A stretch of 59,449 bases of DNA from Candidatus Hydrogenedentota bacterium (GTDB lineage Bacteria > Hydrogenedentota > Hydrogenedentia > Hydrogenedentales > SLHB01). The notes below the pieces were generated by a model, which saw only the letters and a list, made by a program, of their open reading frames with translations, did not search any database and had not been told where the DNA came from. The stretch lies in NCBI GenBank assembly GCA_045863295.1, contig BTWA01000037.1:1-59449 (forward strand), read 5' to 3'. The position numbers and the translations under genes were made by a program. Positions 3,934 through 22,806 of this stretch are shown piece by piece. The first letter of the stretch is position 1. Each line of letters starts with the position of its first letter.

Positions 3934-6900
3934 ATGTGCCTGCGTCCATTGGGCGTGTTTGTTGGTCGATTGCTCTTACCTATTGTTTTCATTGCCTGCG
4001 GACTTCATTTACTTTTCCCCATAGCTCACGCACAACCCCCTCTTTACCGGTTTGAACGTGCCTGGCCCTCTTTCCAACAGCCTTGGTCGTTTAATGAACC
4101 CCGGGGAATTGCGGCGGACTCCCTTGGCAATTTATACATTGCCGATGCCTCGCGCGATGTCATTTTCAAATTTGACCCCGATGGCCGTCTCCTTTCGATT
4201 TGGGATGTTGCCGGGTTTACGCCACGAGGCATTGCTTTGGACGCCGTCGACAACGTTTACGTAGTGGATGGATTCCCTGCCCGTGTTCTGAAGTTCAATT
4301 CCAACGGGTTGCTTATTTCCAGTTGGACGGCGAATGTTGGGGGCAATCCGAAGGGGATTGCCATTAGCGAATCGGGTATAGCGTATGTCGTGAAAGGCGA
4401 TACCCACCAGGTGGCCGCGTTCGATTTGGACGGCAATTTTTTGTTCGCCTTTGGCAGCGCGAGCGCGGGGGACTACTATTTTAATCAGCCCGAGGGCGTG
4501 GCCGTCGGGTATGCGGGCCGGGTATATGTAACCGACGTGCTTGCCAGTTGCATCAAGGTTTTTGATGCCGACGGTAATTACTTGTTTACCTTCGGACAGT
4601 TTGGGAGCGGTCTCGGCGACGTGAACCAGCCATTTGGCATTGATATTGATGACAATGGAACCGTGTATGTAGTTGAGCGTGAAAACGAACGAGTTCAGAC
4701 CTTCGACTTCAACGGGAATTGGGACCTGCAATGGGGTACTGAAGGGTTTGGCAACGGCCAATTCTCCGAGCCAGACGGGGTGGCCGTCGCAAACGGGTTT
4801 GTATACACGGCGGACCATGGCCTCAGGCGCGTCCAAAAATTTACGAAAACCGGTGTCTATGTATCCAAATGGTCGCGTAGCGGTACTGGAAATGGTGAAT
4901 TCTTTAGCCCCTTCCATATGACCCGCGACAGCAATAACCGGATCATCGTTGTCGATCAGGCCAATGATCGGGTTCAAATTTTCAATTCAAACGGTCAATT
5001 CGAAAGGGCTTTTGGACAGACGGGGTTTGCCAATGGTCAATTTCAAGTTCCTACCGGCGTGTGTGTGGACAGCAACGACAACATTTATGTCTCCGATAAT
5101 TCCAATGTCGACATTCAGAAATTCAATTCGTTGGGCGTTTTTCAAGCCAAATTTGATTTCGATATCGGATCGTCCGATGGCCAGTTCAGTTCGCTTCAAG
5201 GCATCGCGGTGGATTCGGCTGGAAACATCTATGCGGTGGACCGGTTCAATCACCGGATACAGAAATTCAATTCAGCAGGCACGTTTGTGGGGAAGTGGGG
5301 ATCGGACGGCACGGGCACCGGGCAGTTCAAATTTCCCACCGATATTCTGATTGATCCCAGCGATATCATTTACGTGACCGACTATCTGCTAAACAGCAAT
5401 GGCCGCATTCACCGGTTTACCACGTCGGGTACCACCCCCGCCACAGGACCTTCCGAATATGGCAATACCGGACATCCGCTGGACTTGACGAATCCTATCG
5501 GTCTGGCGTGGCATCCGAGCGGATATCTGATTGCGGTGGATGGGAGCCAAGTGAGGCCACTGGTCCAATATGATTCAAATGGGACGCCCCATGCAGTCCT
5601 TGAAGATCCAAACGGCGGGTTATTCAAGAATAGCGAAATGAAGGATGCAGCCGTAGATTCAAACGGAAACCTATTCTTGACGGGAAATGCGCGCAATCAG
5701 GTATTTAAGTTGACTCCAGCTATCCCGGCACAGGTCACCAAGGCTATCGTCGTAGCGGGCGGTGGACCTTTTGATGGCAACAATCTATGGCCCGCGACGA
5801 TGTCATCCGCAGCCACTTCGGTCTGGACTTTGTTCAATCAAGGGTTGACCAAAGACGCTCTGACGTTGTTGAGCCCTGTGGAACTACCCGATTTTGATGG
5901 CAATGGGATCAAGGATGAGTTCGACAGTCTTGCGACGTCGGCCAACTTACAGAACGCGATCACTACGTGGGCGACGCAGGACCTGAACGGACAGGCTGTT
6001 CAAGACGTGGTAATCTATCTGGTCGATCATGGCGGTCCTGGCAAATTCCGTCTGAACGAGACCGAGATTCTTAATTTCTCGACGTTCGCGGGATGGGTCA
6101 ATACTCTGCAGGCGGTTATTCCTGGTAAGGTCATAATTGTGTACGACGCATGTGAAGCGGGTTCCTTTGTATCCACGATGGGATTGCCTTCGGCCAACGG
6201 CAAACGCATCGTCATCGCCAGTTCAGCAGACAACGAACAGGCCCACTTTGTCTCGTCGGGTGCGGTCTCGTTTTCGAATTTGTTCTGGACACAGATTTTC
6301 AACGGTCAATCGGTTGGATCTTCCTATACATCGGCATCGAGCGTTATGGCCCCGTTTCAGACAGCGCAACTTGACGACAATGCGGACGGCGCGGCCAACG
6401 GCGGTGGAGATGGGCCTGTAGCCGCGGGTACGTTTATCGGGCTTCATATTGCTCAAGGCTGGACCGGACCCATCATTGGTACCCTTGGCGTCCCGTCCAG
6501 CATTACCAATTCAAACAGTGCAAACCTATTTGCCGACAATGTTTCAGATCCCGAAGGGGTGAGCCGCGTATGGGCCGTGATATCACCGCCAAGTTACCCA
6601 GGCGCGGAAGACACCATGCCCGTTACGGGACTGGGTACCGTTGACCTGTATCCCGTGAACGCCACCCGGTGGGAAGGCACCTACGATGGATTTGTCATTC
6701 CCGGTATGTACACAGTCCGTTTCTATTCCATGGATGGCAACGGATCGATATCACCCACGTCCGGGACCTTTATCAATGTGATCGATCCGCCTCGCCGCCG
6801 GCACGTCATCGTTGGGGGCGGGCCGCAGTCGTCCTCGCAGTGGCCGTCCATTGAGTGGGCGGCGTCGTGGGTGCGCACGTCGCTTCTGTATCAAGGGCAC

Positions 6901-9771
6901 AAAGATGCCGAGATCAATTTTCTGAGTCAGACATCGGTAGCGGGTGTGGATAGCACGGCTACTCTCGCGAACCTGCACAATGCGATCAGTTTTTGGGGCG
7001 CCAGCAATACGCGCGATTTGACGATCACGTTAATAGGACCCGCCACGCCCAATGGATTCTGGGTGAATGGGACGGAATTGCTGACATGGTCGGAGCTTGA
7101 TAACAAGCTGGATGGGATACAGGGGTATATGCCCGGCCCCATAACAGTCATTTGCGATACGGACGCGTCCGGCGCGATGATTCCGCAGCTCGATCCTCCT
7201 TTGGGTGCACAGCGAATTCTGATTTCGAGCACCGATCCCGGGCAGAGTGCGACATTCGCCAACGAGGGCGTGATGAGCTTCACGCGGTTCTTTTGGTCGA
7301 GCGTGGCGTTGGGCGGCACGGCGGGGCAGTCATTTCTGAAAGCGCAAGAGGCCATGGCCTTCGCCGCGGGGCAGGATGCTCAGTTGGACGATGACTCAAC
7401 CGGCGCATATGACACGAAATTTGACGGCAAGCTTGCGTTGAAGTATTCGTTGGGCACGGGCATTCAATTGTCGGGCGACGAGCCGTTGATTGGTTCCGTG
7501 TCGCCGCCTCAAGACATTGGGACGCAGACGTCGGCCAGTTTTTGGGTGGAGGATGTGACGACCCTGTTGACGCTGGATTCGATTCTGGCGGTCATCTCGC
7601 CTCCCGACGGCGGCACGCCGATCGAAGTGCCCATGACGGCGGGCGCGGGCGGACGTTATGAGGCTACGTTCAACGGGTTTGGCCAGTTTGGGACCTACAA
7701 CATCAGCATATCCGCACTCGATGCGCGCGGGGTGTCGTCAGATCCTGCGGAGACGTCCGTCACGCGGCCCGCGCCGGACTCGGCGGATGCGTTTGAGGAA
7801 GATGATTCCGCTGCGGCGGCGAAATGGATAGGCCTTGATGCGTTTCCGGATCAATTGCATACGTTTCACGATGCGGGTGATCAGGACTGGGCCACGTTTT
7901 ACGGCACTGCTGGGCAGATAGTCACCGTGGAGACGAATAACCTCGGTGCAAACGTGGATACATTGGTGCGCGTCTTTCGCGCCGATGGCACGACAGAAGT
8001 GGCGATGAACGACGATCGCGGATTGGGTAATGTTTCTTCGTATTTGAACTGGACCGTGGACGTCTCCGCGATGTATCTGGTGAAAGTGGCGCACTCGCCC
8101 AATTCGGCCTTGCCCGGTAGCGGCACGGGGACCCAGTACCGATTGCGGGTGTGGCGGGAGACGGGTCCGTCCTTGCCAGGTTCGCTGTTTGTGAGTGTGG
8201 TGAATTCGGGCGGTGGGTCGGTGCCGGGTGCGACGGTTCAAATTAACAGCACTACGCCGCCATGGCAGGTGCAGCAGAGCACTGGAGCCGCGGGCACGTT
8301 TCAATTCAATGGGCTGGCGGCGGGCTCCTACACGGTTATCGCTTCCTCCGGTGGGCAGTCTTCTTCGCCGGATGCGGTGAACATTCCCGCGGGCGGTAAT
8401 CAGAACAAGGTCATTATGCTTGCCGCGGGCGCGACGGGCGCACTTCAAGTGAATTTGACGCCTCCGGGGGCAGTGACCGCCGGTGCGCAATGGCGCGTCG
8501 ATGGCGGTGCATTCCAGAACAGTGGATCTACCATGAGCGGGTTATCCGCGGGATTGCATTCGGTTTCCTTTAAAAACGTGACAGGATTTGTGACTCCGGT
8601 ATCGACGAATGTGACGATCAACAGCGGGCAAACTACGGTGATTGGTGGTGCGTATTCGGCCGCGCAGTTGGCCACGCCGCAAGGGTTGCAGGCAAGCGAC
8701 GGGACGTTTACCGACAAGATTCAAGTGACGTGGCAGGCGGTAGCAAACGCCACCGGATACCGTGTGTATCGCAGCCAGACCTGGGACGGCGGTTCGGCCA
8801 CCGCGATCGGCGACGTGTCGGGAACCACATATGAGGATTTCTCGGCCTCCGCACCGAATGTGACCACACCGCCAGGCGGATGCGGTGGCGGAGGCGGTAC
8901 GCCTCAGGTCAATTACATCACCTACGTGTATTGGGTACAGGCGCTGGGCGCGAACGGGGCTCAGAGCAACTGGTGTCCGCCGAACGACGGGTATCGCGGT
9001 GCGGGAGTCAAGTTGCTGGACGCGTGGTCTCGGGCAGAGGGCGCTCCGGTGTTTGAAACGGCTTTGCCCACGCTTACCGGGGCCGATGGAATGCGAGTCG
9101 CACGAAGTGGCGACGCGCTTGCGCTTCGAATCATGGCCGACGAAGCCATTGATCCGTTTAGCCTAGCCGGTGAAGTGACGTGGGATGCGGGAAGCCGGGG
9201 CTTCGTGGATTGGGTAGAGGGAGAAGCGGGCGGTTGGGCTGTGGCACTACCCGTACCGGAGTGGACGGTGGGGTCCTTGGTGACTCTGACCGTGTCTGCG
9301 AGCACGGTTTCCGGAATTCCAGTGGAGGCGGTATCGCGTACCTTCAGGATTGTGGAAGACACCGAGTTTGCGTCGCTGATGCCTCGCATGGAAGGGGGCA
9401 TAGGCAATCCCATTCTGCTGGACCCGACAGGACCCTTCCTGCAGCCGGAATCCGTGGCGTTGAATTTGCCCGCCGGCTACGGGCTGGGCGATATCGATCT
9501 GTACTATTACCTCGCGGATGGCGACCGCGCGGGCTGGCATTCCGCCGGAACGATGGTAGGTTTTGCCGCGGGCATCGGACCGGATGGTCAATTGACTGTC
9601 CGTCACGGTGGCGTGGTTCAATTTGGATTGAAGGCAGCTCTTGAGCCGGCCCAATCCGGTATCGGTATGTCGTCGGACTTTGGTGGCGGCGCGGTCGTAC
9701 TTATGGTCGCACTAGCAGTTTGCGTGTGGTTGAACCGCAGGAATACGTGGCGGCCACGGGCCAGGCGGTAA
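3934..9771 (+). CDS. Large secreted, membrane-anchored NHL-repeat / C13-like (clan CD) peptidase protein, paralogue 1
   Basis: Signal peptide ending IAHA|Q; ~12 NHL repeats (F..P.GIAVD..GN.YV.D..N.RIQKF); YLVDHG and YDACEAGSF dyad; degenerate second peptidase domain; PPC-like domain (DAFEEDD...DQDWATF); PEGA-like repeat; FN3 (QASDGTFTDKIQVTW); C-terminal TM with Arg-rich tail. Confidence 0.9.
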   Translation: MCLRPLGVFVGRLLLPIVFIACGLHLLFPIAHAQPPLYRFERAWPSFQQPWSFNEPRGIAADSLGNLYIADASRDVIFKFDPDGRLLSIWDVAGFTPRGIALDAVDNVYVVDGFPARVLKFNSNGLLISSWTANVGGNPKGIAISESGIAYVVKGDTHQVAAFDLDGNFLFAFGSASAGDYYFNQPEGVAVGYAGRVYVTDVLASCIKVFDADGNYLFTFGQFGSGLGDVNQPFGIDIDDNGTVYVVERENERVQTFDFNGNWDLQWGTEGFGNGQFSEPDGVAVANGFVYTADHGLRRVQKFTKTGVYVSKWSRSGTGNGEFFSPFHMTRDSNNRIIVVDQANDRVQIFNSNGQFERAFGQTGFANGQFQVPTGVCVDSNDNIYVSDNSNVDIQKFNSLGVFQAKFDFDIGSSDGQFSSLQGIAVDSAGNIYAVDRFNHRIQKFNSAGTFVGKWGSDGTGTGQFKFPTDILIDPSDIIYVTDYLLNSNGRIHRFTTSGTTPATGPSEYGNTGHPLDLTNPIGLAWHPSGYLIAVDGSQVRPLVQYDSNGTPHAVLEDPNGGLFKNSEMKDAAVDSNGNLFLTGNARNQVFKLTPAIPAQVTKAIVVAGGGPFDGNNLWPATMSSAATSVWTLFNQGLTKDALTLLSPVELPDFDGNGIKDEFDSLATSANLQNAITTWATQDLNGQAVQDVVIYLVDHGGPGKFRLNETEILNFSTFAGWVNTLQAVIPGKVIIVYDACEAGSFVSTMGLPSANGKRIVIASSADNEQAHFVSSGAVSFSNLFWTQIFNGQSVGSSYTSASSVMAPFQTAQLDDNADGAANGGGDGPVAAGTFIGLHIAQGWTGPIIGTLGVPSSITNSNSANLFADNVSDPEGVSRVWAVISPPSYPGAEDTMPVTGLGTVDLYPVNATRWEGTYDGFVIPGMYTVRFYSMDGNGSISPTSGTFINVIDPPRRRHVIVGGGPQSSSQWPSIEWAASWVRTSLLYQGHKDAEINFLSQTSVAGVDSTATLANLHNAISFWGASNTRDLTITLIGPATPNGFWVNGTELLTWSELDNKLDGIQGYMPGPITVICDTDASGAMIPQLDPPLGAQRILISSTDPGQSATFANEGVMSFTRFFWSSVALGGTAGQSFLKAQEAMAFAAGQDAQLDDDSTGAYDTKFDGKLALKYSLGTGIQLSGDEPLIGSVSPPQDIGTQTSASFWVEDVTTLLTLDSILAVISPPDGGTPIEVPMTAGAGGRYEATFNGFGQFGTYNISISALDARGVSSDPAETSVTRPAPDSADAFEEDDSAAAAKWIGLDAFPDQLHTFHDAGDQDWATFYGTAGQIVTVETNNLGANVDTLVRVFRADGTTEVAMNDDRGLGNVSSYLNWTVDVSAMYLVKVAHSPNSALPGSGTGTQYRLRVWRETGPSLPGSLFVSVVNSGGGSVPGATVQINSTTPPWQVQQSTGAAGTFQFNGLAAGSYTVIASSGGQSSSPDAVNIPAGGNQNKVIMLAAGATGALQVNLTPPGAVTAGAQWRVDGGAFQNSGSTMSGLSAGLHSVSFKNVTGFVTPVSTNVTINSGQTTVIGGAYSAAQLATPQGLQASDGTFTDKIQVTWQAVANATGYRVYRSQTWDGGSATAIGDVSGTTYEDFSASAPNVTTPPGGCGGGGGTPQVNYITYVYWVQALGANGAQSNWCPPNDGYRGAGVKLLDAWSRAEGAPVFETALPTLTGADGMRVARSGDALALRIMADEAIDPFSLAGEVTWDAGSRGFVDWVEGEAGGWAVALPVPEWTVGSLVTLTVSASTVSGIPVEAVSRTFRIVEDTEFASLMPRMEGGIGNPILLDPTGPFLQPESVALNLPAGYGLGDIDLYYYLADGDRAGWHSAGTMVGFAAGIGPDGQLTVRHGGVVQFGLKAALEPAQSGIGMSSDFGGGAVVLMVALAVCVWLNRRNTWRPRARR

Positions 9772-9880
9772 TTCTTTTCTGGCATACCCGGAATTGAAAT
9801 CGGGAGTATTTGCTGTTCGTAGTTTTCGCAGTCAGTTTATGCGGAGTAGGCTGGATTAGAAGCAGATTCGGCGTCACGTT

Positions 9881-9908
9881 GTGTTGGGTTGCATGGTATA
9901 CTCAACAC
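9881..9908 (+). promoter_or_regulatory. Putative extended -10 promoter overlapped by an inverted repeat, upstream of paralogue 2
   Basis: GTGTTGGGT-N10-ACTCAACAC overlapping ATGGTATACT (9893-9902). Confidence 0.4.
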
Positions 9909-10084
9909 AAGCTGTAGGTGACATTCGATTAGACCGGCTTTCTGCACTGGCTTTGATTTTGCCAATGAAAAGCGAGTAATCCGGTAGTTTGCCGGAGTGT
10001 GCGGTTGTCCGACGGGAGCCCAGGGCACGGGGTCCAAGGTCTACCGCCCTCATTAAGTCGCATTCTTGACAAGGAATCGTCCTG

Positions 10085-13000
10085 ATGGAAGAGCGTCCAT
10101 CGGTCACGCGGGGTATTACCGTGTCACGTCGTGCCCAGATCGCGTTTTGTTTGTTTTGGATGGTAGCCCAAGTTCCCTCCACAGCCGAACTGCTGTTATA
10201 TGAGTTCGAACAGTCTTGGCCAGTCCAAGTAAATTCCGTGTTAAATCTTGACGCCACATCTCTGTACGCGGATCGGGATGGGCACGTGTATGTACTTTCC
10301 AGTTACATCTACAAGATGGACTCGACAGGACGTTGGCTGCAAACGTGGAACCCGGGCGGTTCGTATCATATGCCCGCCAAGATCTACACGCCCCGTACAA
10401 TCTCCGAGCAGCAGGGTGTGGCGGTAGACCAGGCGGGACAGGTATATCTCGCCGCTTCCTTTTCCATCAACGTGTACTCGCCCGAAGGCGTACTGCTTGC
10501 GACGCACTCATTTCTGAATCCGGGCAGCCCGCCCGATCAATTAAATGCCGCCGACATCGTTGTCGACGGTCTTGGCTACATGTACGTGACGGATCACGTT
10601 AACGACAAGATTTTTCGCGTGAAGCCGAGCGGGTCGCTGCTGTCGTATTTGGGATCGCCAGGCACCGGTTCGGGCCAATTCAATATGCCAACCGGCATTG
10701 CCATGGACGTAGAAGGTGTTTTGTACGTCGTAGACAAAGGCAATAATCGGATTCAAAAGCTAGAGCGTGACGGCACGTTTTTGACCAGTTGGGGAACGCT
10801 GGGAAATGGAGACGGCCAGTTTTCCGCCCCCCAGGGAATCGCGATCGGGTCCATAGGCAACGTCTATGTTGCCGATACCGGCAACAACCGGATTCAGTGT
10901 TTTGACAGCAGCGGTGCATTCCAATTCAAATGGGGCATTCAAGGCAGCGGGCCGGGCGAATTCAACAGTCCGGAAGATGTAACCGTTGACGACAGCGGGT
11001 TTGTGTACGTCATCGACGGGGACAATTTTCGCATTCAGAAGTTTACGAAGGATGGCGCCTTTGTCACCTCTTGGAGCCGCTTGGGTTTTGAGAACGGCAC
11101 ATTTCACTATCCGTATGGCGTGGCGCTGGACAGCGCGGACAACGTATATGTGACAGAACGCGACAATCATCGCGTGCAGAAGTTTGATTCCAGCGGAGCA
11201 TTTATCACGAAGTGGGGCAGCTTTGGCACGGGCGACGGACAGTTTAACGAACCGTTCAGCATTGCCATCGACGGTTCGGACAATGTGTACGTGTTGGACA
11301 AGAACAATCACCGCGTGCAGAAGTTTACCTCGGTGGGCGGATTCCTTTTGAAGTGGGGGAGTTTCGGAACGGCCGACGGCGAATTTGCGCATCCCGAGGG
11401 GATTGCGGTGGATTCGGCCGGGAACGTTTATGTATCCGATACCACCAACGACCGCGTACAGAAATTTGATTCGGCGGGCAATTTCATCATGAAGTGGGGT
11501 ACGGAAGGGCCCGGCGATGGTCAATTCCGTAACCCCAAAGGCATCGATGTTGATGCGGCCGGTGCCAACGTGTTCGTCGTGGATGGAAACAACAATCGCG
11601 TTCAGAAGTTTACGAACAGCGGCGCGTTCGTGACGAAATGGGGCCAATTGGGGGCGGAAGCGGGGGACTTCGATGCGCCCGTAGGGCTCGCGTTGGACGA
11701 CGCAGACAAGGTGTACGTTCTTGAGCCCTCCAGCGGCAACCGCATTCAAAAGTTCGAACCCAACGGAACGTACATCACGCAGTGGGGCGATCGTGGTCCG
11801 GGCAGTTCGTCCACGGCCAGTTTAGACAACAAAATCATTCCCGGCATCTTCTACAGCCCGTGGGATCTCGAAGTGAGTTCGACGGGGGATGTATACGTAT
11901 CCGATGTGAACAACCATCGCATGCAAAAGTTCAAACCGGTCAGCGGCACGGACATTACGATAGGAATCGTGGTGTTGGGCGGCGGTCACTATAACGGCAA
12001 CCGGCTGTGGGGGGCGACGCAGTCGAACGGAGGGCTGGCGTGTTGGGCCATGGCCGCGCAGGGCATCCACGCGGACCGCATCCTGTTGATGACGCCGGGC
12101 TTTCCAACAACGATGGCAGGGGCGCTTTCACAGGCGACGGCGTATTACCCCAGTGAATTTGACATGAGTCAGATTGTGAACGACATCGCGGCCCAATGGC
12201 CGGGCATTGTGAAGAATGCCGTGGTCTATCTGGTCGATCACGGCGCCCCCGGCCGATTCAGGCTGAACGAAGACACCATACTCGAAGATTCGCAGCTTGC
12301 GAGTTGGATTGACGATATTCAAGAGCAAATTTCCGGCACATTGACCGTTGTCTACGATGCATGCGAATCGGGCACCTTCATCAGCGCGCTCGCAAATCCC
12401 ACGTATGCGGGCAAGCGCATTGTTATCGCAGCGACGAGCGCCGGGGAACAGGCGCATTTTGTGGAGAACGGTTTGCTGTCGTTCTCCAATCATTTCTGGT
12501 CCGAAGTATTGAATGGCGAGACGGTGGGTGAGTCGTTTGAACGCGCCAAGACCGCGATGAGTTGGGCCAATCAGAACCCGATACTCGACGACAACAGCGA
12601 CGGCACGGGAGACGGGCCGGCCAACCATCCGTTGGCCGACGTCACGCATATTGGTTCGGGAACCTCGGGGAATTTCACGCCACCGGTGCATACGACGACC
12701 GGTGGGGCGTATTCGGGGGTCAACGACGGCACCGTGTTTGTTGACGGCGTGTCCGACGACGAGGGGGTTGTAAGAGCGTGGGCGATTGTGACGCCTCCCA
12801 CCTTGACCACTTCGCAGGCGCCGTCCACGATGGCGGTAATCCACCGATCGGAAGTTGAACTTTTACCGGACGATGACGACAGCGATCGATGGGAAGGGAC
12901 TTATACCGATTTCGTCACGCCGGGTGTGTACAGCGTGGATGTTTTCTTGCTGGACGCGGTGGGTGCGTTATCGGGGCCGTTTCACACGACCGTGACCGTG

Positions 13001-16000
13001 GGCAATCCGCCAACCCGGAAAGTCATCCTGGTTGCGGCGGGAGATCCGGCTTCGCAAGAGTGGCCCGCCTATGTATATACGGCGGGTTGGGCGTATGCCG
13101 CGCTGCGGATACAAGGGTATACGGACGACGACATCCGCTTCTTTAGTCAGGCCACGGGTGCGGGCGTGGACGATTCCGACGCTACCCTCGCTGAAGTAAA
13201 CGATGCCATTGTCAATTGGGCTGCAACCAACACGCGCGATCTAACGATCTGTTTCATAGGTCAAGGCGTGCTGGGCGGCATCTGGATCAACCAGAGCGAG
13301 TTTCTTGAGTGGACCAGCCTGGGCACAGCCCTCGATGCCATACGCGACAACATTCCCGGAATGTTGACTGTCTATTGCGACGCGGACGGCGCGGGTAGCC
13401 TGTTGCCGCAAATTGCCCCTCCGCCGGAACACCCGCAGATAGTGGTTACCGGAGCGGGCGCTGGACAATCCGCCAGTTTCGCCAATGGGGGCATCACCAG
13501 TTTTTCGCGTCATTTTTGGGTGGAGACCGCCTTTGGGGCAACGGTGGCCGGGGCGTTTCAAAAGGCGGCTGGCGCGATGAAATTCGCGACCGGTCAAACC
13601 GGCGAACTGGATGACAACGGGGACGGCGTGTATGACTCCAAGGTCGACGGCACACGTGCCCTGCGCTACACAATTGGCAACGGCGTGGGCCTTGCCGGCG
13701 ATGAACCAGTTATCGGCGACATTTCGGGCGATCAGACGCTCTTCGGCGCCGAAACCTCGGCGACTTTTGGTGTAGGGCCGGTGTCTTCGCTCCTCGCGAT
13801 GCAGGAAGTGGTGGCGACGATTACGCCGCCAGACGGCGGCGCGCCGTTCGATGTTTCACTTGGAGAGACGTTTCCAGGCGAGTGGGAGGCCACCTACGAC
13901 GGTTTCACCAAGACCGGCGTATACCGAATCAGCGTGACCGCCGTTGACATCCGGGATATTGCCTCCGCGCCGAAAGAGACACGTGTAACCAAACAAACAG
14001 GGTCGGGAGACGGGGCCGATACGTACGAAGACGACGACGCATTTGGAAATGCGAAGTGGATCGGCGTCGATGCGTTTCCGGATCAGGTACATAATTTTCA
14101 CGATAATGGCGACATCGACTGGGCGACATTTCATGCCAATTCCGGCGACGTGATTACGGTCGAGACCAACAATCTCGGCGAGAATGTCGACACGCATATT
14201 CAGGTTTTCCGCGCGGACGGGGCAACGCAGGTTGCGGAAAACGACGACCGGCCCATTGGCGATGTGTCCTCCAGCGCGACGTTTACCGTGGACACCACTG
14301 CGTTTTACCTGGCAAAGGTTTTTCACTCCGCCGATTCGGACTTGCCGGGGTTTGGAACCGGTTCGAATTATGATTTGCGCGTATGGCGACAAACCGGACC
14401 AGCACTGCCCGGCAACCTGATGGTGACCGTGTTAAATGGCTTGAGCCAGGGCGTTGCGAATGCCACGATTACATTGAACAGTACAACCCCACCCTGGAAC
14501 TTGCAGCAACCGGTGCATTCGGACGGTACCTATTCCTTTACAGGACTTGGTTCGGGCAGCTATCAGGTGGCCGCTTCGGCTCCAGGATTTGGCCCGAGCT
14601 CTCCCGTGAATGTCTTCGTGTCCGCCGGCGGCAGCGCCAATCAGGTAATCACGCTCTCGGGACAAACCGGCGGCATCACCTGCACGATTGAACCCGCGGG
14701 CGCAGTGGCGGCGGGGGCGCAGTGGCGCGTCGACGGCGGTGCATTCCAGAATAGTGGCGCGACCGTATCGGGATTGACGGCGGGCGCACACTCCGTGACG
14801 TTTAAGGACATTGCAGGGTGGGTCACGCCAGCCGGAGCGAACGTGACCGTCAATCCCAATCAGACCGCGTCCGCTGGTGGTACTTACACACCGGCACAAT
14901 TGGCCACGCCCCAAGGACTCCAGGCGAGCGACGGCACGTTTGCCGATCGTGTGGAAGTCACTTGGCAGGCCGTGCCCAATGCGACAGGATATCGCGTCTA
15001 TCGTAGTCAGTCGTGGGATGGCAGTACGGCTACAGCGATAGGCGACGTCGCCGGAACGACGTTCAATGACACAACAGCAGCGACTCCCAACGTCGTCACT
15101 CCGCCCAGTGGCTGTGGCGGTGGCGGCGGTACACCGGTAGTGACGTACGTCACGTATGTGTATTGGATACAGGCGCTCGGAGCGGGGGGCATTGTAAGTA
15201 ACTGGTGTCCGCCGAACGACGGATATCGCGGGTTGAGTGCAAAATCCATGGATTGGCTGGCGTCGGAAGTTTATCAGCCGGCATTGCCGACACATTCCCT
15301 GGGAGAAGGCATCCGCGCGGCGTTGCCGGGCGATACCCTTGCGGTACGGTTGCGGGCAAGCGAACCCATCAATTGGGATGGCGTCGAAGCGACTCTGCGA
15401 TGGGAGGGGGGCGAGATTTCAACTGTGGAGACGGTGGTCATCGAAGGTAGCGGCGGCACCGACGGATGGGTTGTGGCCAAGCCGGATCCGGTTTGGACAG
15501 CGGATTCGGTGATTCGATTCGAAGTCACCTTCACAACGATAACCGGAACGCCCCAGGATCCGGTGACCTACGAATTCCATGTTCTGGAAGTACTTCCTGC
15601 CGATTCCGTCGCCGCCTTGGATGGGGCTGCCGGTAATCCATTTATAGTTGCTCCCTCGGGCCCATTTGAAGAATCCCAAAGCGTCACTGTCACGCTTCCG
15701 GCTGGAAATGGGGACGTAGACGTATACTACTACGTGAGCGACGGTCCGGCCGCAGGCTGGCACCCTGCATCCGAGGTGGTGGGATTGCTGGATGGGGAAA
15801 GTTCGGATTTTGGGAACGGGACGTGTCAACTTCGAGTCCGTCACGGCGGAACGCTGTGCTTGGGTCCGGCTGTAGCGCCTTTGGAACCATCGTCGTTGGG
15901 TTACAGCCGGGAATTGACTGGACGTGTTCTGGTGGCGGCCATTTTGGCGATCCTTCTGGCCGTAGCGCGAATTCGGCTTGCACGGACCGAATCAAGGACG

Positions 16001-16003
16001 TAA
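10085..16003 (+). CDS. NHL-repeat / C13-like peptidase surface protein, paralogue 2 (start may be GTG 10121)
   Basis: Same architecture; YLVDHG / YDACESGTF; C-terminal RVLVAAILAILLAVARIR. Confidence 0.9.
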   Translation: MEERPSVTRGITVSRRAQIAFCLFWMVAQVPSTAELLLYEFEQSWPVQVNSVLNLDATSLYADRDGHVYVLSSYIYKMDSTGRWLQTWNPGGSYHMPAKIYTPRTISEQQGVAVDQAGQVYLAASFSINVYSPEGVLLATHSFLNPGSPPDQLNAADIVVDGLGYMYVTDHVNDKIFRVKPSGSLLSYLGSPGTGSGQFNMPTGIAMDVEGVLYVVDKGNNRIQKLERDGTFLTSWGTLGNGDGQFSAPQGIAIGSIGNVYVADTGNNRIQCFDSSGAFQFKWGIQGSGPGEFNSPEDVTVDDSGFVYVIDGDNFRIQKFTKDGAFVTSWSRLGFENGTFHYPYGVALDSADNVYVTERDNHRVQKFDSSGAFITKWGSFGTGDGQFNEPFSIAIDGSDNVYVLDKNNHRVQKFTSVGGFLLKWGSFGTADGEFAHPEGIAVDSAGNVYVSDTTNDRVQKFDSAGNFIMKWGTEGPGDGQFRNPKGIDVDAAGANVFVVDGNNNRVQKFTNSGAFVTKWGQLGAEAGDFDAPVGLALDDADKVYVLEPSSGNRIQKFEPNGTYITQWGDRGPGSSSTASLDNKIIPGIFYSPWDLEVSSTGDVYVSDVNNHRMQKFKPVSGTDITIGIVVLGGGHYNGNRLWGATQSNGGLACWAMAAQGIHADRILLMTPGFPTTMAGALSQATAYYPSEFDMSQIVNDIAAQWPGIVKNAVVYLVDHGAPGRFRLNEDTILEDSQLASWIDDIQEQISGTLTVVYDACESGTFISALANPTYAGKRIVIAATSAGEQAHFVENGLLSFSNHFWSEVLNGETVGESFERAKTAMSWANQNPILDDNSDGTGDGPANHPLADVTHIGSGTSGNFTPPVHTTTGGAYSGVNDGTVFVDGVSDDEGVVRAWAIVTPPTLTTSQAPSTMAVIHRSEVELLPDDDDSDRWEGTYTDFVTPGVYSVDVFLLDAVGALSGPFHTTVTVGNPPTRKVILVAAGDPASQEWPAYVYTAGWAYAALRIQGYTDDDIRFFSQATGAGVDDSDATLAEVNDAIVNWAATNTRDLTICFIGQGVLGGIWINQSEFLEWTSLGTALDAIRDNIPGMLTVYCDADGAGSLLPQIAPPPEHPQIVVTGAGAGQSASFANGGITSFSRHFWVETAFGATVAGAFQKAAGAMKFATGQTGELDDNGDGVYDSKVDGTRALRYTIGNGVGLAGDEPVIGDISGDQTLFGAETSATFGVGPVSSLLAMQEVVATITPPDGGAPFDVSLGETFPGEWEATYDGFTKTGVYRISVTAVDIRDIASAPKETRVTKQTGSGDGADTYEDDDAFGNAKWIGVDAFPDQVHNFHDNGDIDWATFHANSGDVITVETNNLGENVDTHIQVFRADGATQVAENDDRPIGDVSSSATFTVDTTAFYLAKVFHSADSDLPGFGTGSNYDLRVWRQTGPALPGNLMVTVLNGLSQGVANATITLNSTTPPWNLQQPVHSDGTYSFTGLGSGSYQVAASAPGFGPSSPVNVFVSAGGSANQVITLSGQTGGITCTIEPAGAVAAGAQWRVDGGAFQNSGATVSGLTAGAHSVTFKDIAGWVTPAGANVTVNPNQTASAGGTYTPAQLATPQGLQASDGTFADRVEVTWQAVPNATGYRVYRSQSWDGSTATAIGDVAGTTFNDTTAATPNVVTPPSGCGGGGGTPVVTYVTYVYWIQALGAGGIVSNWCPPNDGYRGLSAKSMDWLASEVYQPALPTHSLGEGIRAALPGDTLAVRLRASEPINWDGVEATLRWEGGEISTVETVVIEGSGGTDGWVVAKPDPVWTADSVIRFEVTFTTITGTPQDPVTYEFHVLEVLPADSVAALDGAAGNPFIVAPSGPFEESQSVTVTLPAGNGDVDVYYYVSDGPAAGWHPASEVVGLLDGESSDFGNGTCQLRVRHGGTLCLGPAVAPLEPSSLGYSRELTGRVLVAAILAILLAVARIRLARTESRT

Positions 16004-16116
16004 ACAACTCCGCCATGCTTTGCAGTTATTGCACTGCCGAGCATTGTTGTAAGTGGAGTTTCCAATGGGTCGAGTAATGTAGTCGATTGTGTAGCTGTGG
16101 GTTACCTGGGGGAACC

Positions 16117-19100
16117 ATGTCACTTCCAGTCCGGTGTGTTGTTTACGCGGGGCTAGCTTATTGTTCGCTTTGCGGCGCTGAGACCGTGTATCAACTCGAT
16201 CGCACGTGGCCGGTCGAGACAAATCCACTGCCTTCGTTTGTAAATGCTCACAGTCTGACCGTCGATCGGCAGGGAAATGTCTATATAACGGAGTGGTTTT
16301 TTCATCGGATCTTTAAAACCGATTCCACCGGCCAACCCATTTTGCACTGGGGCACCCTCGGAGACGGATTGGGCCAAGTGTCGCACCCGGCGGGTGTCTC
16401 CACAAGCGTGGACGGCAAAGTCTATGTACTCGAATCCGGCAACAACCGTGTTCAAGTATTCGACGGAATTGGCGTACCCCTCTTTCAATTTGGCTCGGCG
16501 GGATCGGGCGACGGGCAGTTCAGCTTGCCGTTCGATATCCTCGTTGGTCTGGACGGAAAAGTCTATGTCGTCGACCAGGGCAATGACCGTGTCCAGGTCT
16601 TTACAGCCGATGGCCAGTTCTTGAGAAAATGGGGCAGCAGCGGAATCGGAGACGGTCAGTTCGATGCGCCCACGGGAATTGCCATGGACGATGACGGCAA
16701 TATCTACGTCGCCGACCGTGAATTGGATCGCGTGCAGAAATTCGATATCGAAGGAAACTTCCTCGCCAAGTGGGGCGCCACAGGTACTGGCAACGGGCAA
16801 ATGGACTATCCCACCGGCGTGGCAATTCTGCCGAACGGCCTCGTATGCGTCGCGGATTCGGGAAACTCTCGCGTTCAGCTATTTGACGCAAACGGCGTAT
16901 ACCAATACCAATTCGGTTCCGTAGGGCCGGGGGACGGACAATTCTCCACCCTGGATGCCATCGACGTGGGGCCGGACGGTCTGATTTACGCGTTGGAATC
17001 CGAGAATTCCAGGGTGCAGGTATTCAATGCAAATGGCAGCTATCTCCGCCAATGGGGAAGATTCGGAAATCCGCCCGGTCACTTTGCCGCTCCTGCCGCG
17101 GTCACAGTCTCCCCGGATGGCACAATGTATGCCGTTGACCGATATCTCCACCGCATACAGAAGTTCGCGCCGGATGGATCTTTTGATTCGTATTTGGGCA
17201 GCCCCAACGGGGCCGGCGGAGGCGATGGCGAATTCAACTGGCCTGAATCAATTGCAATGAACGCTGCAGGCGACGTCTATGTCACCGACACGTCGAACAA
17301 CCGTGTTCAAAAGTTTGATGCGAGCGGCAATTTCCTGCTGAAGTGGGGAGTCACGGGAGCGGGGGACGGCGAGTTTGTCTGGCCTAACGCGGTTGCGATC
17401 GGGCCGGACGGATCGGTTTATGTCTGCGATTACGGCAACAACCGCGTTCAGCGGTTCGATGCGAACGGTATATTCATCAGCAAGTGGGGTTCGGGCGGCA
17501 GTGGCAACGGACAGTTCACGGATATTCATGGCGTGGCCGTGACATCCGACGGCACGGTATTCGTTGCGGATGCCGGAAATAATCGGATTCAAAAGTTCAC
17601 CTCAACCGGCGCATACCTGGGACAAACTCAATCACCGGGATCGGGCGATGGGCAGTTTAATGCGCCGTATGATGTGAAGATCGGCGCCGACGGCAATCTA
17701 TATGTTGCAGACACGGGCAATCACCGGATCCAGATTGTCGACACCAATTTCACGTATCTCAATCAAATCGGAAATGGATTTCAAGGCGGCGACAACTTCT
17801 TGTCGCCTTTCGGCGTCAGTCCGGGTCCCGCGGGTTCCGTCTATGTCGCCGATACGGATCAACGCCGTGTTCAGAAATTCGTGCCGGTAGAATCTTCCAC
17901 CATCACGTCTGTATCCAAGGCCGTTGTCGTCATGGGGGGCGGTTCGTATCCTGGAAATGGACTGCTGCCAGCGACCGTTGCATCGGGCGCTCTCGCGTTC
18001 TGGGCCATGACTCAACAAGGAATCAACCCGGCCGAGATTTATGTGCTCGGTCCGTCGCTCGGCGCGCAATTGAACTTTACGGTGGACGCCGACGTGGACG
18101 CGATTGCGACCAAATCTGCCCTTGCCGACGCACTAACCCAATGGGCGATGGAACCAGTCAACGGCCTGCCTGTGAAAGACGTGTATGTGTACCTGGTCGA
18201 CCACGGCGGCGTAGGCAAGTTCCGGCTGAACGCAGACGACGAGATCTTGGACGAGACTGAACTCGCGGGGTGGTTAAACACGCTGCAACCGGCCATCACC
18301 GGTGATTTGGTTGTCATTTACGATGCCTGTGAGTCCGGTACCTTTCTGGCTACATTGAACGGTTCAAATGGCGCGGGTGAACGCGTGCTCATCACGAGTA
18401 CGGCCTCTGGAGAACCGGCCCACTTTGTCCAGGGAGGTCAGATTTCGTTCTCCAGCATCTTTTGGCCCGAGATACTCAATGGCCAATCGATTGGGGACGC
18501 ATTCACACGCGCCTCCGCCGCCATGGGGTGGGCCAATCAACAGAGCCTGCTCGAAGCCGACGGAAACGGCTCCCCGAATGAATCGACGGACATTGCGGTC
18601 GCAAACGGACTCATTCTGGGGAAGGGGACCACGCAATACTTCGACAACGCTCAAATTGGCAGCGTTGCCCCGGACAGCCAGATAGCGGGCGTAAACGACG
18701 GGCTCATCTGGGTTGATGACGTTACAGACAACGACGGAATTCAACGAGTCTGGGCGGTGATCACGCCGCCTTCCTATGTGTCCGCATACTCCACCATGGC
18801 GGTCATCGATCGGGCGTCCTTGGATTTGGTTCACGTGGGCGGCGATCGCTATGAAGCCACGTACGGTGAATTTGTGGTGCCGGGTACCTACGCGGTCGAC
18901 ATTTTCGTTGAAGATGGAGTTGGCGTCATCGCGGGGCCCGTGCACACGACGGTGGATGTGGGTACCCCGCCGCGCCGGAAGGCAATAGTCATTGCCGGGG
19001 GGGATCCAGGTGGAGAACTTTGGCCCGCGCATGATTGGGCGTCCTCCTGGGTGTATTCGGCTTTAAAGATTCAGGCCTACACCGATGATGACATTTACTT

Positions 19101-22100
19101 CCTCACGCATGCGGATGTCGCGGATGCACCAGGAAAAGACGGTGTGCCAGGCATGGCCTCCATTCAAGCGGCCATCGGCACCTGGGGAATTCAAAACACG
19201 CGCGACTTGACGATTGTTCTCGTCGGTCCCGGAGGGTTAGGGCAGTTCCTGCCAAACGCCACCGAAGTGCTGTCGTGGGATACATTGGACGGTTGGCTGG
19301 ATTCGGCGCAGGCAAACATTCCCGGTGTAGTCACCGTGATCGCAGATTGCGACGGATCGGGAAGTCTGCTGCCCAAAATGTCCGCTCCGGTCGCGAAGGT
19401 GCGGTATTGCGTCGCGGCAAGCGGTGCAGGACAGCAGGCCGCGTTTGGCAACGGCGGCGTGATGAGTTTCACCCGGTTCTTCTGGGTAGCTACGGCTCTT
19501 GGCGCGAATTTGGGCGAGTCCTTCAACGTGGCCGCCGAAGCAATGGCATTTGCCGCCAATCAACGATCGGAAATCGACGACACTCTCGACGGTTATTTCG
19601 ATTTGAAGTCGGACGGATTTCAAGCCCTGCATTACACCATAGGCACGGAAATCGGCCTCGCGGGAGACGAACCCCTGATCGGCGCCGTCGTTGGCGAACA
19701 AATCCTGGGAGAAAACGATTCCGAAGCCACAATTTGGGTGGATCAGGTGTCCACGCTGCTCGCGTTGCATCAAGTGGTCGGGTTGATCACGCCGCCAGGC
19801 GGCGCGGAACCGGTGGAGATCCTGTTGCAGCCCGACGGCACAGGGCGCTACTCGGCCACCTACAACGGCTTTGTAAACTTCGGCACGTATCCCGTCACCG
19901 TTACCGCAGTGGATCTTCGCGGTGTCTCGTCCGCACCCGCGGAAACCATTGTTGCGAAGCCCAACCCCTTGGGCGTGGATCCGGATATCTACGAGCAGGA
20001 CAATTCGTTCGGTGAGGCCAAGCCAATCACGGTAGACGGATTCCCGGATCAACGTCACAACTTCCATGTGCAGGCCGACGAAGACTGGGTCAGTTTCTAC
20101 GCAACGCTCGGAGATGTCGTGACAATTGAGACCAACAATCTGGGATTCGCCTGCGACACGATAATTGAGTTGTACGGAACGAACGGCACAAGCCTAATTA
20201 ATTCTCAAGATGACAGGAGCCTTGGAGACAAGTCGAGCCGGTTGGTGTGGACGGTCACGGCCACGGGCGTCTACTTTGTCCGCGTGCGCGATACCGAAGA
20301 CGCGCACGGTGACGGTGCCACGTATGACTTGCGTGTGTGGCGCGAAACAGGACCGGAAAAGGACGTCAATGTCACGCTCAACTTTGTTTCGACGGCACAG
20401 GGCGGAGCCGCGGTCCCCAATGTGACCATGAGCTTTATCCATCAGGGAAATGATCTGCAGAAAACGATCTCAAACTATTCAGTACAATTTGGCGGTAACT
20501 ACAATTTCTCATGGTATTCCGGCACGTATAGAGTCGAGGCCTCGGCCCCGGGCTTTTCGCCGGTTACCTACAATCCCATTGTCGCGAACGCTGGCGGCTC
20601 GATAAACTTGGCGATTCAGATGACCCCAGTGCCCGGCAGCATACAAACGACGATCCTGCCTGCCGGCGCGGTCAGCGCGGGTGCAAAGTGGCACACAGGA
20701 GACAACATACTCCAAAACAGCGGAGCCACAGTCTCCAATCTGGCGCCCGGAAATTATTCCGTTGTCTTTACTCCCGTGGCCGGATGGATCAAACCTGCAA
20801 CTCAGAATGTGCAAGTATCAAGTTCGGCAACGACTCAAGTAACCGGCACCTACGTGCAGGCAGGATCGGTCAGCGTTACCATTCAGCCCGCTGAGGCAAT
20901 GGCTGCCGGTGCACAATGGCGCTTGGACGGTGGACCCATGCAAGCGAGCGGTGCCACGCTGACTGATGTGACACCGGGGTCACACACAATCACCTTTTCA
21001 ACCGTAGCCGGTTGGATTACGCCGGCAGACATTCAGGCTACCGTCACTGGCGGACAAACCAATGATGAGACGGGGACCTATGTCGCCCGTACAGGGTCGT
21101 TAAACGTTACACTACTTCCCACCGCGGCGGTGACCGCGGGCGGTCAATGGCAGGTGGACGGCGGCGCGTGGCACAACAGCGGGGACACCGTTAACGGCTT
21201 GAGCATCGTGGGTCAGCGCACCGTGTCGTTCAAGTCTATTTCCGGCTGGGCCAAACCGGGAGACAAGTCGGTCCAAATCGTGGAAGGCCAGACGGCGAAT
21301 GAATCGGGCACGTATACCGTCGAGACGGGTTCATTAAAGGTCACCATTGAACCGGACGAAGCCGTGAATGCGGGGGCAAAGTGGCGCGTCGATAACGGTG
21401 CATTGAATGCTTCAGGGGCGACCGTGACAGGCTTGTCAGTCGACGAACACATACTGTCATTCGTTCAAGTCGACGGTTGGGTCACACCCGCGCCTCAAAA
21501 CGTGGACATCACCGCGAATACTTTGACCACCAAGACGGGGACGTATCAAAAGGCTACTTTAACGACGCCATCGGGCTTGCAAGCGAGCGATGGCACGTTT
21601 ACGGACAAGATTCGCTTGACATGGAATCCCGTGCAAAGTGCAACGGGCTACAAGATTTTTCGCGCCACTACCTGGAACGGAGGGGAAGCCGCGCAACTGG
21701 GCACCTCGACCAACGCGTTCTTTGAGGACTTTTCCGCCGCGCCGCCTTCGAACACAGGAGGGGGCGGCTGCAAATCCGCTCCAGCCGCACTCAAAGTGGA
21801 CTACGTAAAGTATGTGTATTGGGTTCAGGCGACGGGTCCGGGCGGCATTCAGGGAGACTGGTCCGCTCCGGACGACGGCTACCGCGGCGCCGCGAAGAAC
21901 TTCACGAATGAGTTGATCGATCCTGTCTACGAATCGGCGTTGCCCCCGGTTTCACTGGGTCCAAATTTGCGTGCCGCACGTCCCGATGATGTGCTGGCCG
22001 TACGTATCCGGGCGGATGGCGTGATCGATCCGACGAGTATTGTCACGCAAGTTACGAGCAACGGAATACCCATCGCGAATGGCGAGTGGATGCCCTACGA

Positions 22101-22647
22101 GAGTGGTGGCGGCAGCGACGGGTGGGTCATCTCACGACCGGAGGGAGCGTGGCCGGTGGGGCAGGATATTCTCTTTGAAGTAACCGCTGCGACAGAATCC
22201 GGCGAAGCACTTGAAAGCATTACGTATACGTTTCGAATCGTGGAGAATCCTTCGCTGGAAGGCATTCCGCCCATGGCCGGATCCGTCGGTGACGTGATCG
22301 AAGTACGCCCGTCGGGAACGGTCGGAGAGCCGTCCGGCATTATCATTGCCAATCCGAAGGCGGCGGGCCAGGCAACGGTTTACTGCTATCTCGCCGATGG
22401 GGATCATCCTGGTTGGTATCGGGGGGATCGAGTGGACGGGTGGCTTGCCAGAGATCCTGTGGTGACGGAAGACGGATCGGTGCATATAAGCGTTCGACAT
22501 GGCGCGGTAATCTGCATGGGTCCGGACAATGTGGAGGAGATGCCCGCATCCGCCGGGCTTGGCCATGGGGACCTGCTCGTAATCATGTCCACATTTGCCG
22601 TGTTGGCGATACTCCAGAGGCAAATTCCAAGACTTCGAAAGCGATAA
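16117..22647 (+). CDS. NHL-repeat / C13-like peptidase surface protein, paralogue 3, with 4 PEGA-like stalk repeats
   Basis: GGGGGA SD before ATG 16117; YLVDHG / YDACESGTF; four AGA.W..DG repeats; ends GDLLVIMSTFAVLAILQRQIPRLRKR. Confidence 0.9.
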   Translation: MSLPVRCVVYAGLAYCSLCGAETVYQLDRTWPVETNPLPSFVNAHSLTVDRQGNVYITEWFFHRIFKTDSTGQPILHWGTLGDGLGQVSHPAGVSTSVDGKVYVLESGNNRVQVFDGIGVPLFQFGSAGSGDGQFSLPFDILVGLDGKVYVVDQGNDRVQVFTADGQFLRKWGSSGIGDGQFDAPTGIAMDDDGNIYVADRELDRVQKFDIEGNFLAKWGATGTGNGQMDYPTGVAILPNGLVCVADSGNSRVQLFDANGVYQYQFGSVGPGDGQFSTLDAIDVGPDGLIYALESENSRVQVFNANGSYLRQWGRFGNPPGHFAAPAAVTVSPDGTMYAVDRYLHRIQKFAPDGSFDSYLGSPNGAGGGDGEFNWPESIAMNAAGDVYVTDTSNNRVQKFDASGNFLLKWGVTGAGDGEFVWPNAVAIGPDGSVYVCDYGNNRVQRFDANGIFISKWGSGGSGNGQFTDIHGVAVTSDGTVFVADAGNNRIQKFTSTGAYLGQTQSPGSGDGQFNAPYDVKIGADGNLYVADTGNHRIQIVDTNFTYLNQIGNGFQGGDNFLSPFGVSPGPAGSVYVADTDQRRVQKFVPVESSTITSVSKAVVVMGGGSYPGNGLLPATVASGALAFWAMTQQGINPAEIYVLGPSLGAQLNFTVDADVDAIATKSALADALTQWAMEPVNGLPVKDVYVYLVDHGGVGKFRLNADDEILDETELAGWLNTLQPAITGDLVVIYDACESGTFLATLNGSNGAGERVLITSTASGEPAHFVQGGQISFSSIFWPEILNGQSIGDAFTRASAAMGWANQQSLLEADGNGSPNESTDIAVANGLILGKGTTQYFDNAQIGSVAPDSQIAGVNDGLIWVDDVTDNDGIQRVWAVITPPSYVSAYSTMAVIDRASLDLVHVGGDRYEATYGEFVVPGTYAVDIFVEDGVGVIAGPVHTTVDVGTPPRRKAIVIAGGDPGGELWPAHDWASSWVYSALKIQAYTDDDIYFLTHADVADAPGKDGVPGMASIQAAIGTWGIQNTRDLTIVLVGPGGLGQFLPNATEVLSWDTLDGWLDSAQANIPGVVTVIADCDGSGSLLPKMSAPVAKVRYCVAASGAGQQAAFGNGGVMSFTRFFWVATALGANLGESFNVAAEAMAFAANQRSEIDDTLDGYFDLKSDGFQALHYTIGTEIGLAGDEPLIGAVVGEQILGENDSEATIWVDQVSTLLALHQVVGLITPPGGAEPVEILLQPDGTGRYSATYNGFVNFGTYPVTVTAVDLRGVSSAPAETIVAKPNPLGVDPDIYEQDNSFGEAKPITVDGFPDQRHNFHVQADEDWVSFYATLGDVVTIETNNLGFACDTIIELYGTNGTSLINSQDDRSLGDKSSRLVWTVTATGVYFVRVRDTEDAHGDGATYDLRVWRETGPEKDVNVTLNFVSTAQGGAAVPNVTMSFIHQGNDLQKTISNYSVQFGGNYNFSWYSGTYRVEASAPGFSPVTYNPIVANAGGSINLAIQMTPVPGSIQTTILPAGAVSAGAKWHTGDNILQNSGATVSNLAPGNYSVVFTPVAGWIKPATQNVQVSSSATTQVTGTYVQAGSVSVTIQPAEAMAAGAQWRLDGGPMQASGATLTDVTPGSHTITFSTVAGWITPADIQATVTGGQTNDETGTYVARTGSLNVTLLPTAAVTAGGQWQVDGGAWHNSGDTVNGLSIVGQRTVSFKSISGWAKPGDKSVQIVEGQTANESGTYTVETGSLKVTIEPDEAVNAGAKWRVDNGALNASGATVTGLSVDEHILSFVQVDGWVTPAPQNVDITANTLTTKTGTYQKATLTTPSGLQASDGTFTDKIRLTWNPVQSATGYKIFRATTWNGGEAAQLGTSTNAFFEDFSAAPPSNTGGGGCKSAPAALKVDYVKYVYWVQATGPGGIQGDWSAPDDGYRGAAKNFTNELIDPVYESALPPVSLGPNLRAARPDDVLAVRIRADGVIDPTSIVTQVTSNGIPIANGEWMPYESGGGSDGWVISRPEGAWPVGQDILFEVTAATESGEALESITYTFRIVENPSLEGIPPMAGSVGDVIEVRPSGTVGEPSGIIIANPKAAGQATVYCYLADGDHPGWYRGDRVDGWLARDPVVTEDGSVHISVRHGAVICMGPDNVEEMPASAGLGHGDLLVIMSTFAVLAILQRQIPRLRKR

Positions 22648-22783: not shown

Positions 22784-22806
22784 CAATGTTGGAAAGAGGA
22801 GGTCAC

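Follow-up and report, generated by a model that had tools for sequence, protein, structure and literature searches.

Three paralogous giant proteins in a Hydrogenedentota genome combine predicted NHL double propellers with a divergent C13 peptidase

The window analysed here, i.e., the whole stretch of 59,449 nucleotides of contig BTWA01000037.1 (assembly GCA_045863295.1, Candidatus Hydrogenedentota bacterium), carries three adjacent genes, W1, W2 and W3, whose products are paralogues sharing one domain order, as a preliminary description of the DNA had proposed: a signal peptide, 12 NHL blades, an intact C13 peptidase module, a dead copy of this module, a beta-sandwich stalk, a transmembrane (TM) helix and a basic tail. 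These proteins belong to a real and uncharacterised variant of peptidase family C13, which is a predicted legumain-fold protease, though no legumain by its pocket or its prodomain. As to their role, we give an even chance to a reading in which they would be exported, target-selecting cysteine proteases whose propellers choose the targets outside the cytoplasm. Under this reading, the proteins would be exported by Sec, while the model predicts that a pair of conserved linkers locks the two propellers together and that these pack against both peptidase modules. The propeller faces would bind the substrate, each paralogue aiming the same chemistry at a different target, while the dead module may act as a scaffold or as a second peptide-binding site. 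The stalk would keep the head off the membrane, either in the periplasm or on the surface after tail processing and type II export. The three genes are:

3934..9771, + strand: W1 open reading frame (ORF), 1945 amino acids (aa) (ORF call, Pfam)
10085..16003, + strand: W2 ORF, 1972 aa, domain order as in W1 (ORF call, Pfam, BLASTP)
16087..22647, + strand: W3 ORF, 2186 aa, four PEGA-like repeats (ORF call, Pfam, BLASTP)

W1, W2 and W3 are colinear in their domains and share 37-43% identity (BLASTP, main aligned stretches). The start of W3 is more likely the ATG at 16117, which is preceded by a ribosome site, GGGGGAACC. The features of W1, along with the catalytic residues of W2 and W3, are as follows:

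3934..4032, + strand: W1 predicted signal peptide, ending in AHA (sequence; hydropathy 2.39)
4045..4092, + strand: W1 N-terminal strand with its cap (Y.FER.WP.L.QPWYF in the family consensus); by prediction it closes blade 12 and makes up the first cross-over linker (alignment, model)
4078..4878, + strand: W1 propeller A, NHL blades 1-6 (VIA matches, model residues 16-270/282, Z up to 38.6)
4870..4884, + strand: W1 W(S/G)R.G, predicted second cross-over linker, family consensus W.S.G (alignment, model)
4879..5724, + strand: W1 propeller B, blades 7-12 plus the N-terminal strand (VIA matches, model residues 1-560/569, ~275 aligned, Z 38.7)
5731..6459, + strand: W1 C13-like peptidase, intact dyad, two acidic EF-hand-like loops (Pfam, profile, model)
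6028-6030, + strand: W1 His699
6151-6153, + strand: W1 Cys740
6460..6792, + strand: W1 Ig-like beta-sandwich 1 (all-beta by DSSP; PKD/FN3-type VIA matches, Z ~10)
6793..7461, + strand: W1 dead C13-like module, without the dyad but with the pocket framework (legumain Z 24.3, root-mean-square deviation (rmsd) 2.1, 207 aligned)
7459..7785, + strand: W1 conserved G[IV].LAGD.P linker and Ig-like domain 2 (alignment)
7795..8673, + strand: W1 stalk, i.e., PPC-like, CarboxypepD_reg and one PEGA-like repeat (Pfam, by eye)
8686..9633, + strand: W1 FN3-like domain, then a C-terminal beta module shared genome-wide (no Pfam match)
8875-8898, + strand: W1 Gly-rich GGCG insert inside the FN3-like region
9676..9768, + strand: W1 predicted TM helix and basic tail (hydropathy)
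12239-12241, + strand: W2 His719
12362-12364, + strand: W2 Cys760; first acidic loop lost in W2
18202-18204, + strand: W3 His706
18328-18330, + strand: W3 Cys748; pocket Trp replaced by Leu in W3

The clan CD, C13-type fold proposed at the outset was confirmed, since the W1 peptidase models as legumain/AEP. Pfam Peptidase_C13 (PF01650) is matched above its cut-off of 22.8 bits by all three proteins (26.3, 29.8 and 25.9 bits for W1, W2 and W3), and the AlphaFold2 model of W1 residues 599-955 (predicted local distance difference test, pLDDT, 91; predicted template modelling score, pTM, 0.85) has AEP/legumain as its top Foldseek matches. In a wide structural search, the W1 peptidase was closest to OaAEP1 (Z 24.5, rmsd 2.5, 223 aligned residues) and legumain (Z 24.0, rmsd 2.6, 215 aligned residues), these being members of MEROPS C13 (PDB 4aw9, 5h0i), followed by PIG-K (Z 21.2), metacaspase (20.7), caspases (at most 17.5) and gingipains (11.2-11.5). 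When a 32-sequence profile was compared to the PDB, all 32 matches at E<0.01 were C13 enzymes, with the His and the Cys in register, i.e., (D/N)HG and (D/E)AC.SG, and the top ones were PIG-K/Gpi8 (7w72, 7wld, 9ub7; E 7e-7). The dyad motif itself reads DHG/DAC at H699/C740 (W1), H719/C760 (W2) and H706/C748 (W3). No Pfam C14 match was found at E<=0.1 in W1-W3, caspase-type structures scoring Z 13-21.

The differences from legumain/AEP lie first in what follows the peptidase, which is an all-beta Ig-like domain (DSSP/model) in place of the helical C-terminal LSAM prodomain, then in the two acidic EF-hand-like loops and in the fusion to propellers and a dead copy. One loop is present in 109 and the other in 84 of the 132 active modules, and such loops also occur in 100 of 132 dead modules; they may bind Ca2+. 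A third difference is the pocket. According to PMC4357240, S1 specificity in clan CD is set by L1/helix 1, L4 and L5, the legumain residues being Arg44, His45, Ser216 and Asp231. Counted over 132 near-complete heads, Arg-His is never found from strand 1 up to where helix 1 ends (0/132); this stretch reads N.LW.AT (W619 in 127/132, T622 in 130/132), while L5 has Ala (A770, 130/132) at the Ser216-equivalent place, aligned to the Ser of butelase. Moreover, no conserved Asp occurs in these heads at 777-781 (the Asp231 place, register inferred), nor at the helix 1 place of Arg-specific clan CD members, as presumed from the motif spacing. These pocket residues are near-identical in the 14 paralogues of the own genome, except for the Trp to Leu change of W3, and a PDB search with the 47-aa S1 loop yielded chance matches only. 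The Asn, Asp or Arg specificity implied by the preliminary description is thus unsupported, because the pocket residues of legumain are absent (Arg-His from 132/132) and those found are Trp/Ala/Thr/Ala. Since the latter fill the S1 regions, P1 is probably not Asn, Asp or Arg, and rather small or hydrophobic. The C13 enzymes characterised so far are, to our knowledge, legumains with Asn/Asp specificity, ligases and the GPI transamidase. The fold and the dyad being kept while the Asn pocket is absent, the family may add a new specificity to C13, which is used as a source of protein-ligation tools.

The resemblance to PIG-K, whose C13 domain is tethered by a C-terminal membrane segment as in the trio, raises the alternative of a transpeptidase/ligase, like PIG-K or the plant peptide asparaginyl ligases, which would cross-link or anchor the proteins captured by the propellers. 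Beyond the top profile matches and the Z of 21.2 cited above, such an activity would be in line with the Asp before the catalytic His, kept in 90%, and with a small residue after HG (Gly in 87%; Tyr in none of the 15 commonest pairs). The pairs after HG, presumably at the LAD2 position, vary (GD 24, GV 16, GP 16 and AP 6 of 132). Yet AEP/legumain outscore PIG-K structurally, and PIG-K works within a eukaryotic complex of five subunits (PMC7522609), whereas no conserved partner genes were found among 56 neighbouring ORFs here (no genome search for partners was made). Furthermore, no known determinant settles ligase versus protease, the succinimide Asp being dispensable in HaAEP1, so that cleavage and ligation are not decidable from sequence, the ligase determinants not being absolute (PMC8209628). 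Overall, we regard a ligase as unlikely.

The second peptidase module, described earlier as dead, indeed lacks the His and the Cys in register in W1-W3, even though the two modules are homologous (hhalign probability 100). In a survey of 152 proteins (the best 150 of the family search plus W2 and W3, several of them from the own genome), two modules were found in 147, with both His and Cys in 141/152 first modules vs. 3/151 second modules, and NHL repeats stood directly N-terminal to the first module in 134/152. Because the dead module keeps its pocket framework (Asp 91%, Ser-Phe-Ser 91-96%, Trp 60%), the sequences suggest a retained role rather than decay. That both C13 modules might be purely structural, in proteins acting as adhesins, would agree with the family-wide maintenance of the dead module and with the existence of one dead-only gene in the own genome. 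However, we deem it most improbable, as His (98%) and Cys (99%) are near-invariant in the first modules of 132 heads at roughly 30-45% identity, which argues for selection for catalysis.

As additional observations on module composition, the 18 module ORFs of the own genome comprise 14 active-plus-dead ORFs, one dead-only ORF and three ORFs with a single divergent module. The dead-only ORF (L010:3366-6281) encodes a 972-aa protein directly 5' of a full family member, while the giants with a single divergent C13-like module (L007:1976-11116, L013:2410-11031 and L014:1802-8242) have GAC for DAC and an HGRL strand-1 loop, two of them bearing FG-GAP instead of NHL. The active-then-dead order is not universal, since a few homologues with three or four modules carry the intact dyad further along the chain, in one of the later modules (P0021, P0085, P0118, P0009). 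Among 7,999 candidates, stand-alone peptidase forms amounted to only eight short matches, probably fragments.

NHL repeats are matched in W1-W3 (Pfam E 3e-38 to 1e-69), and DSSP counted 12 blades on the W1 model, in agreement with the number of about 12 given initially. AlphaFold modelled W1 residues 34-1185 (1152 aa) from 63 sequences with high scores for five domains (pLDDT 91, pTM 0.89), so that propellers, intact C13 module and dead copy are predicted to form one rigid unit, the head as a whole counting ~1,250 residues. Six-bladed NHL structures (TRIM71/Lin41, TRIM2, Brat, PknD sensor; Z 30-39, rmsd 1.7-3.2) cover one of two ranges of the model, residues 16-282 or 1-~565, the latter with only ~275 aligned residues; because of these two ranges, blades 1-6 are predicted to form one ring and the N-terminal strand to close blades 7-12, i.e., a cross-over double propeller. 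This predicted arrangement and the hypervariable faces set the family apart from the NHL proteins just named. The two crossings correspond to the conserved WP.L.QPWYF cap and to the W.S.G linker. The role of the latter would explain the mid-array W(S/G)R.G motif noticed earlier, which does lie at a homologous place in all three proteins (313, 330 and 323) but cannot serve as a family motif, being found in 3/62 ungapped A2 rows, those of W1-W3 only, for a consensus of W.S.G. Several first-ring alignments end at model residues 1131-1137, range endpoints that hint at the dead module adjoining the first ring. Taken as a whole, the head had no counterpart among solved structures (best Foldseek TMq 0.29), which is no proof of a new fold.

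The claim that the propellers are diversified is supported by the position following the Pro of each blade, presumably on the ligand-binding face of NHL domains: its mean entropy is 3.98 bits vs. 2.50 for the propeller mean, above the 95th percentile of propeller positions, and no residue exceeds 14% in any of the 12 blades. Elsewhere on the top faces, conservation is limited to the Asp/Asn typical of NHL repeats in general, and the conserved catalytic or metal residues of PAL/lactonase-type propellers were not found on the top faces of the 12 blades. Judging from these alignments, the propellers seem to serve as binding surfaces that vary between proteins rather than as enzymes. If substrate targeting by the propellers is true, a rigid head in which a single catalytic site is coupled to binding faces that vary would represent a natural case of exosite-programmed proteolysis. 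The hypothesis also lends itself to a direct test, as certain homologues apparently consist of the head alone (~1,260-1,300 aa). A bolder version of it, which we find rather unlikely, posits a retargetable protease/ligase family with a conserved C13 core, a P1 new to C13, a cross-over double propeller whose hypervariable faces would select the target, and a bracing dead twin in the same chain, which lineages would have multiplied into a dozen or more variants for attacking or modifying foreign proteins (prey, competitor, biofilm matrix).

Several points weigh against exported target selection. With a signal peptide and a C-terminal TM alone, the protein would face the periplasm, since the host has an outer membrane. 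The hypervariable top faces could equally reflect relaxed constraint or adhesion, and covariation analysis (mutual information with average product correction, MI-APC, on 132 sequences) returned high-entropy positions only and no contacts. The S1 register on which the pocket comparison relies derives from short sequence alignments, not from a superposition. Finally, no conserved gene context was apparent in 56/70 neighbouring ORFs scanned (short flanks), and no conserved transporter or substrate gene was found near the family genes. One sequencing run compared with the sequence is probably DNA, its pieces being short and patchy, and so carries no information on expression.

Beyond the head, the domain names given in the preliminary description fared unevenly. 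For the PPC-like domain, Pfam PPC was detected, but under its cut-off, and CarboxypepD_reg passes the Pfam cut-off in W1 and W2 only. The “PEGA-like” repeats (one, one and four in W1, W2 and W3) and the “FN3” domain are beta-sandwiches, but their names were assigned by eye only, with no Pfam PEGA or fn3 match at E<=5; Atlas gives fn3 leads scoring 0.85, all leads for these stretches being below 0.9. As for the ends of the proteins, signal peptides were assigned to W1-W3 by eye and hydropathy, without a predictor, and the N-termini of W2 and W3 show no hydropathy peak above 1.6 (19-residue window), while signal-like N-termini are seen in 53/53 homologues with an intact N-terminus. C-terminal hydrophobic peaks reach 2.07, 2.47 and 1.88 (W1, W2 and W3), each followed by an Arg/Lys tail.

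The anchored stalk had been presented as a defining part of the architecture, which the C-termini of the homologues do not support: sorted by rough patterns, those of 149 proteins fall into dockerin/EF-like (38), TM plus basic (20), F..GFE (11), GCF (11), other motifs (10) and unclassified (59) ends. In some homologues, the second Ig is immediately followed by the end of the chain, 17 proteins stopping at most 30 residues past the last Ig, among which some are probably fragments. The conserved unit is the head, and the anchor is interchangeable.

A linker after the dead module suggests another possibility, namely a self-processing adhesin in which the peptidase would act on the protein it belongs to, like the cysteine protease domains of MARTX, so that the propeller head is released or matured. 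Downstream of the dead module, a Leu-small-small linker is seen in 83/120 cases vs. 5/112 after the active module, several paralogues carry extra N-terminal cargo domains, and the MARTX domain cuts after Leu (PMC2780291). However, this LAG linker is found in 23/37 proteins ending at most 110 residues past the last Ig vs. 66/102 with long tails, although there is little to release in the former, and the head is predicted to be rigid, which would better suit the linker as a structural strand. We therefore rate self-processing as quite unlikely.

The host genome encodes BamA and has two exosortase, three rhomboid and seven over-cut-off secretin matches. The “surface” placement stated in the preliminary description is unproven for such a host with two membranes (BamA, secretins), and we keep it as a supposition. 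NCBIfam sorting-signal models (PEP-CTERM/GlyGly-CTERM type) had no match to the tails. The shared C-terminal module and TM tail also end more than 20 large proteins of the own genome (L001-L020), including two subtilases, an M12 peptidase, BACON/TIG arrays and a cohesin protein. In 11/20 ORFs examined, a Gly-rich GGC insert (window 8875-8898; also in W2 and W3) lies ~270-305 residues from the C-terminus; it recalls what we take to be Cys-bearing sorting motifs and could be a disulfide, lipidation or processing site.

The family is large: at E<=0.001, the core search collects 2,335 clusters (50% identity), and at the stricter E<=1e-30 still 964. Its distribution in the phylum is patchy (46/135 genomes), and it also occurs in Desulfobacterales, Lysobacterales, Magnetocorallium and Magnetococcus records, with 10-19 module matches in 4/5 unrelated carrier genomes. 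The names of the homologues in the source records are generic. One Hydrogenedentes homologue (L021:5623-10033) is spread over overlapping frames, probably owing to frameshifts or an assembly error.

These distributions bear on a last rival, an inner-membrane periplasmic protease acting on the host's own envelope proteins, e.g., by maturing the giants with the shared C-terminal module. The two-membrane host, the tails without a sorting-signal match and the >20 ORFs with the same module are all compatible with it. Nonetheless, we hold it to be very unlikely, given the patchiness across genomes, the many homologues with dockerin-like or other non-TM ends and the hypervariable faces, which, along with the 14 paralogues, fit external targets better.

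Compared to other clan CD systems, MALT1 paracaspase (caspase and Ig3) likewise has a caspase fold followed by an Ig (Z 16.2), and caspase-8/c-FLIP associates an active domain with a dead homologue (c-FLIP Z 13.7). These proteins are cytoplasmic and pair between chains; their Z are lower, and W1-W3 have no Pfam C14 match. Gingipains (C25) are exported bacterial clan CD proteases with Ig and adhesin domains, but of much lower similarity and devoid of propellers; their export is by type IX. Their specificity is Arg/Lys (PMC4357240). The earlier statement that no characterised example was known still stands, full-text searches having found no paper on the architecture (supplements, MEROPS, InterPro and subscription journals being outside their scope). 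The accessible text on prokaryotic caspase homologues (PMC3501461) contains no occurrence of “NHL repeat”, and that of a giant-gene preprint (10.1101/2023.11.21.568195) none of C13, caspase or NHL.

Regarding origin, the “tandem trio” of the preliminary description is real as adjacency, but not as a single duplication clade. Trees were restricted to the own genome (14 rows for the core; nine for the stalk, from which five truncated or stalk-less rows are absent). For the core, a 100/98 branch separates W1 from the other two, whereas the stalk tree pairs W1 with W2 as sisters (97/98), and little DNA similarity is left among the three genes. A recent tandem triplication was ruled out by the approximately unbiased (AU) test on the 14-row core tree, which rejects both W1+W2+W3 (p 2e-43) and W1+W2 (p 0.004) as clades. 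It is likely that neighbouring genes exchanged heads and stalks by shuffling or conversion.

The trio is flanked by lysA on one side and by an ECF (extracytoplasmic function) sigma/hslU/nusA/infB block on the other. Its GC content and that of third codon positions (GC3) are like those of neighbour genes, by which an origin as a horizontal island was discarded, and a plasmid comparison gave no match. Directly 3' of W3 lie an ECF sigma factor and an unassigned 201-aa partner protein (window 22786-23954). This pair recurs in 8/53 family relatives, with no link to protease genes: in six stretches (five relatives), no family gene stood directly 5' of the pair, one member being ~16 kb off. Two promoter-like sites were recovered by pattern search:

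3794..3803, + strand: extended -10 promoter-like site, ATGGTATACT, 5' of W1
9893..9902, + strand: extended -10 promoter-like site, 5' of W2

This extended -10-like pattern, picked post hoc, has two matches in the window vs. 0.01 expected. A TG.TATACT or TGGTA.A.T site, from a pattern derived from W1 and W2 and with 164 sites genome-wide, lies 5' of 4/14 other C13-module genes vs. 0/9 other giant genes.

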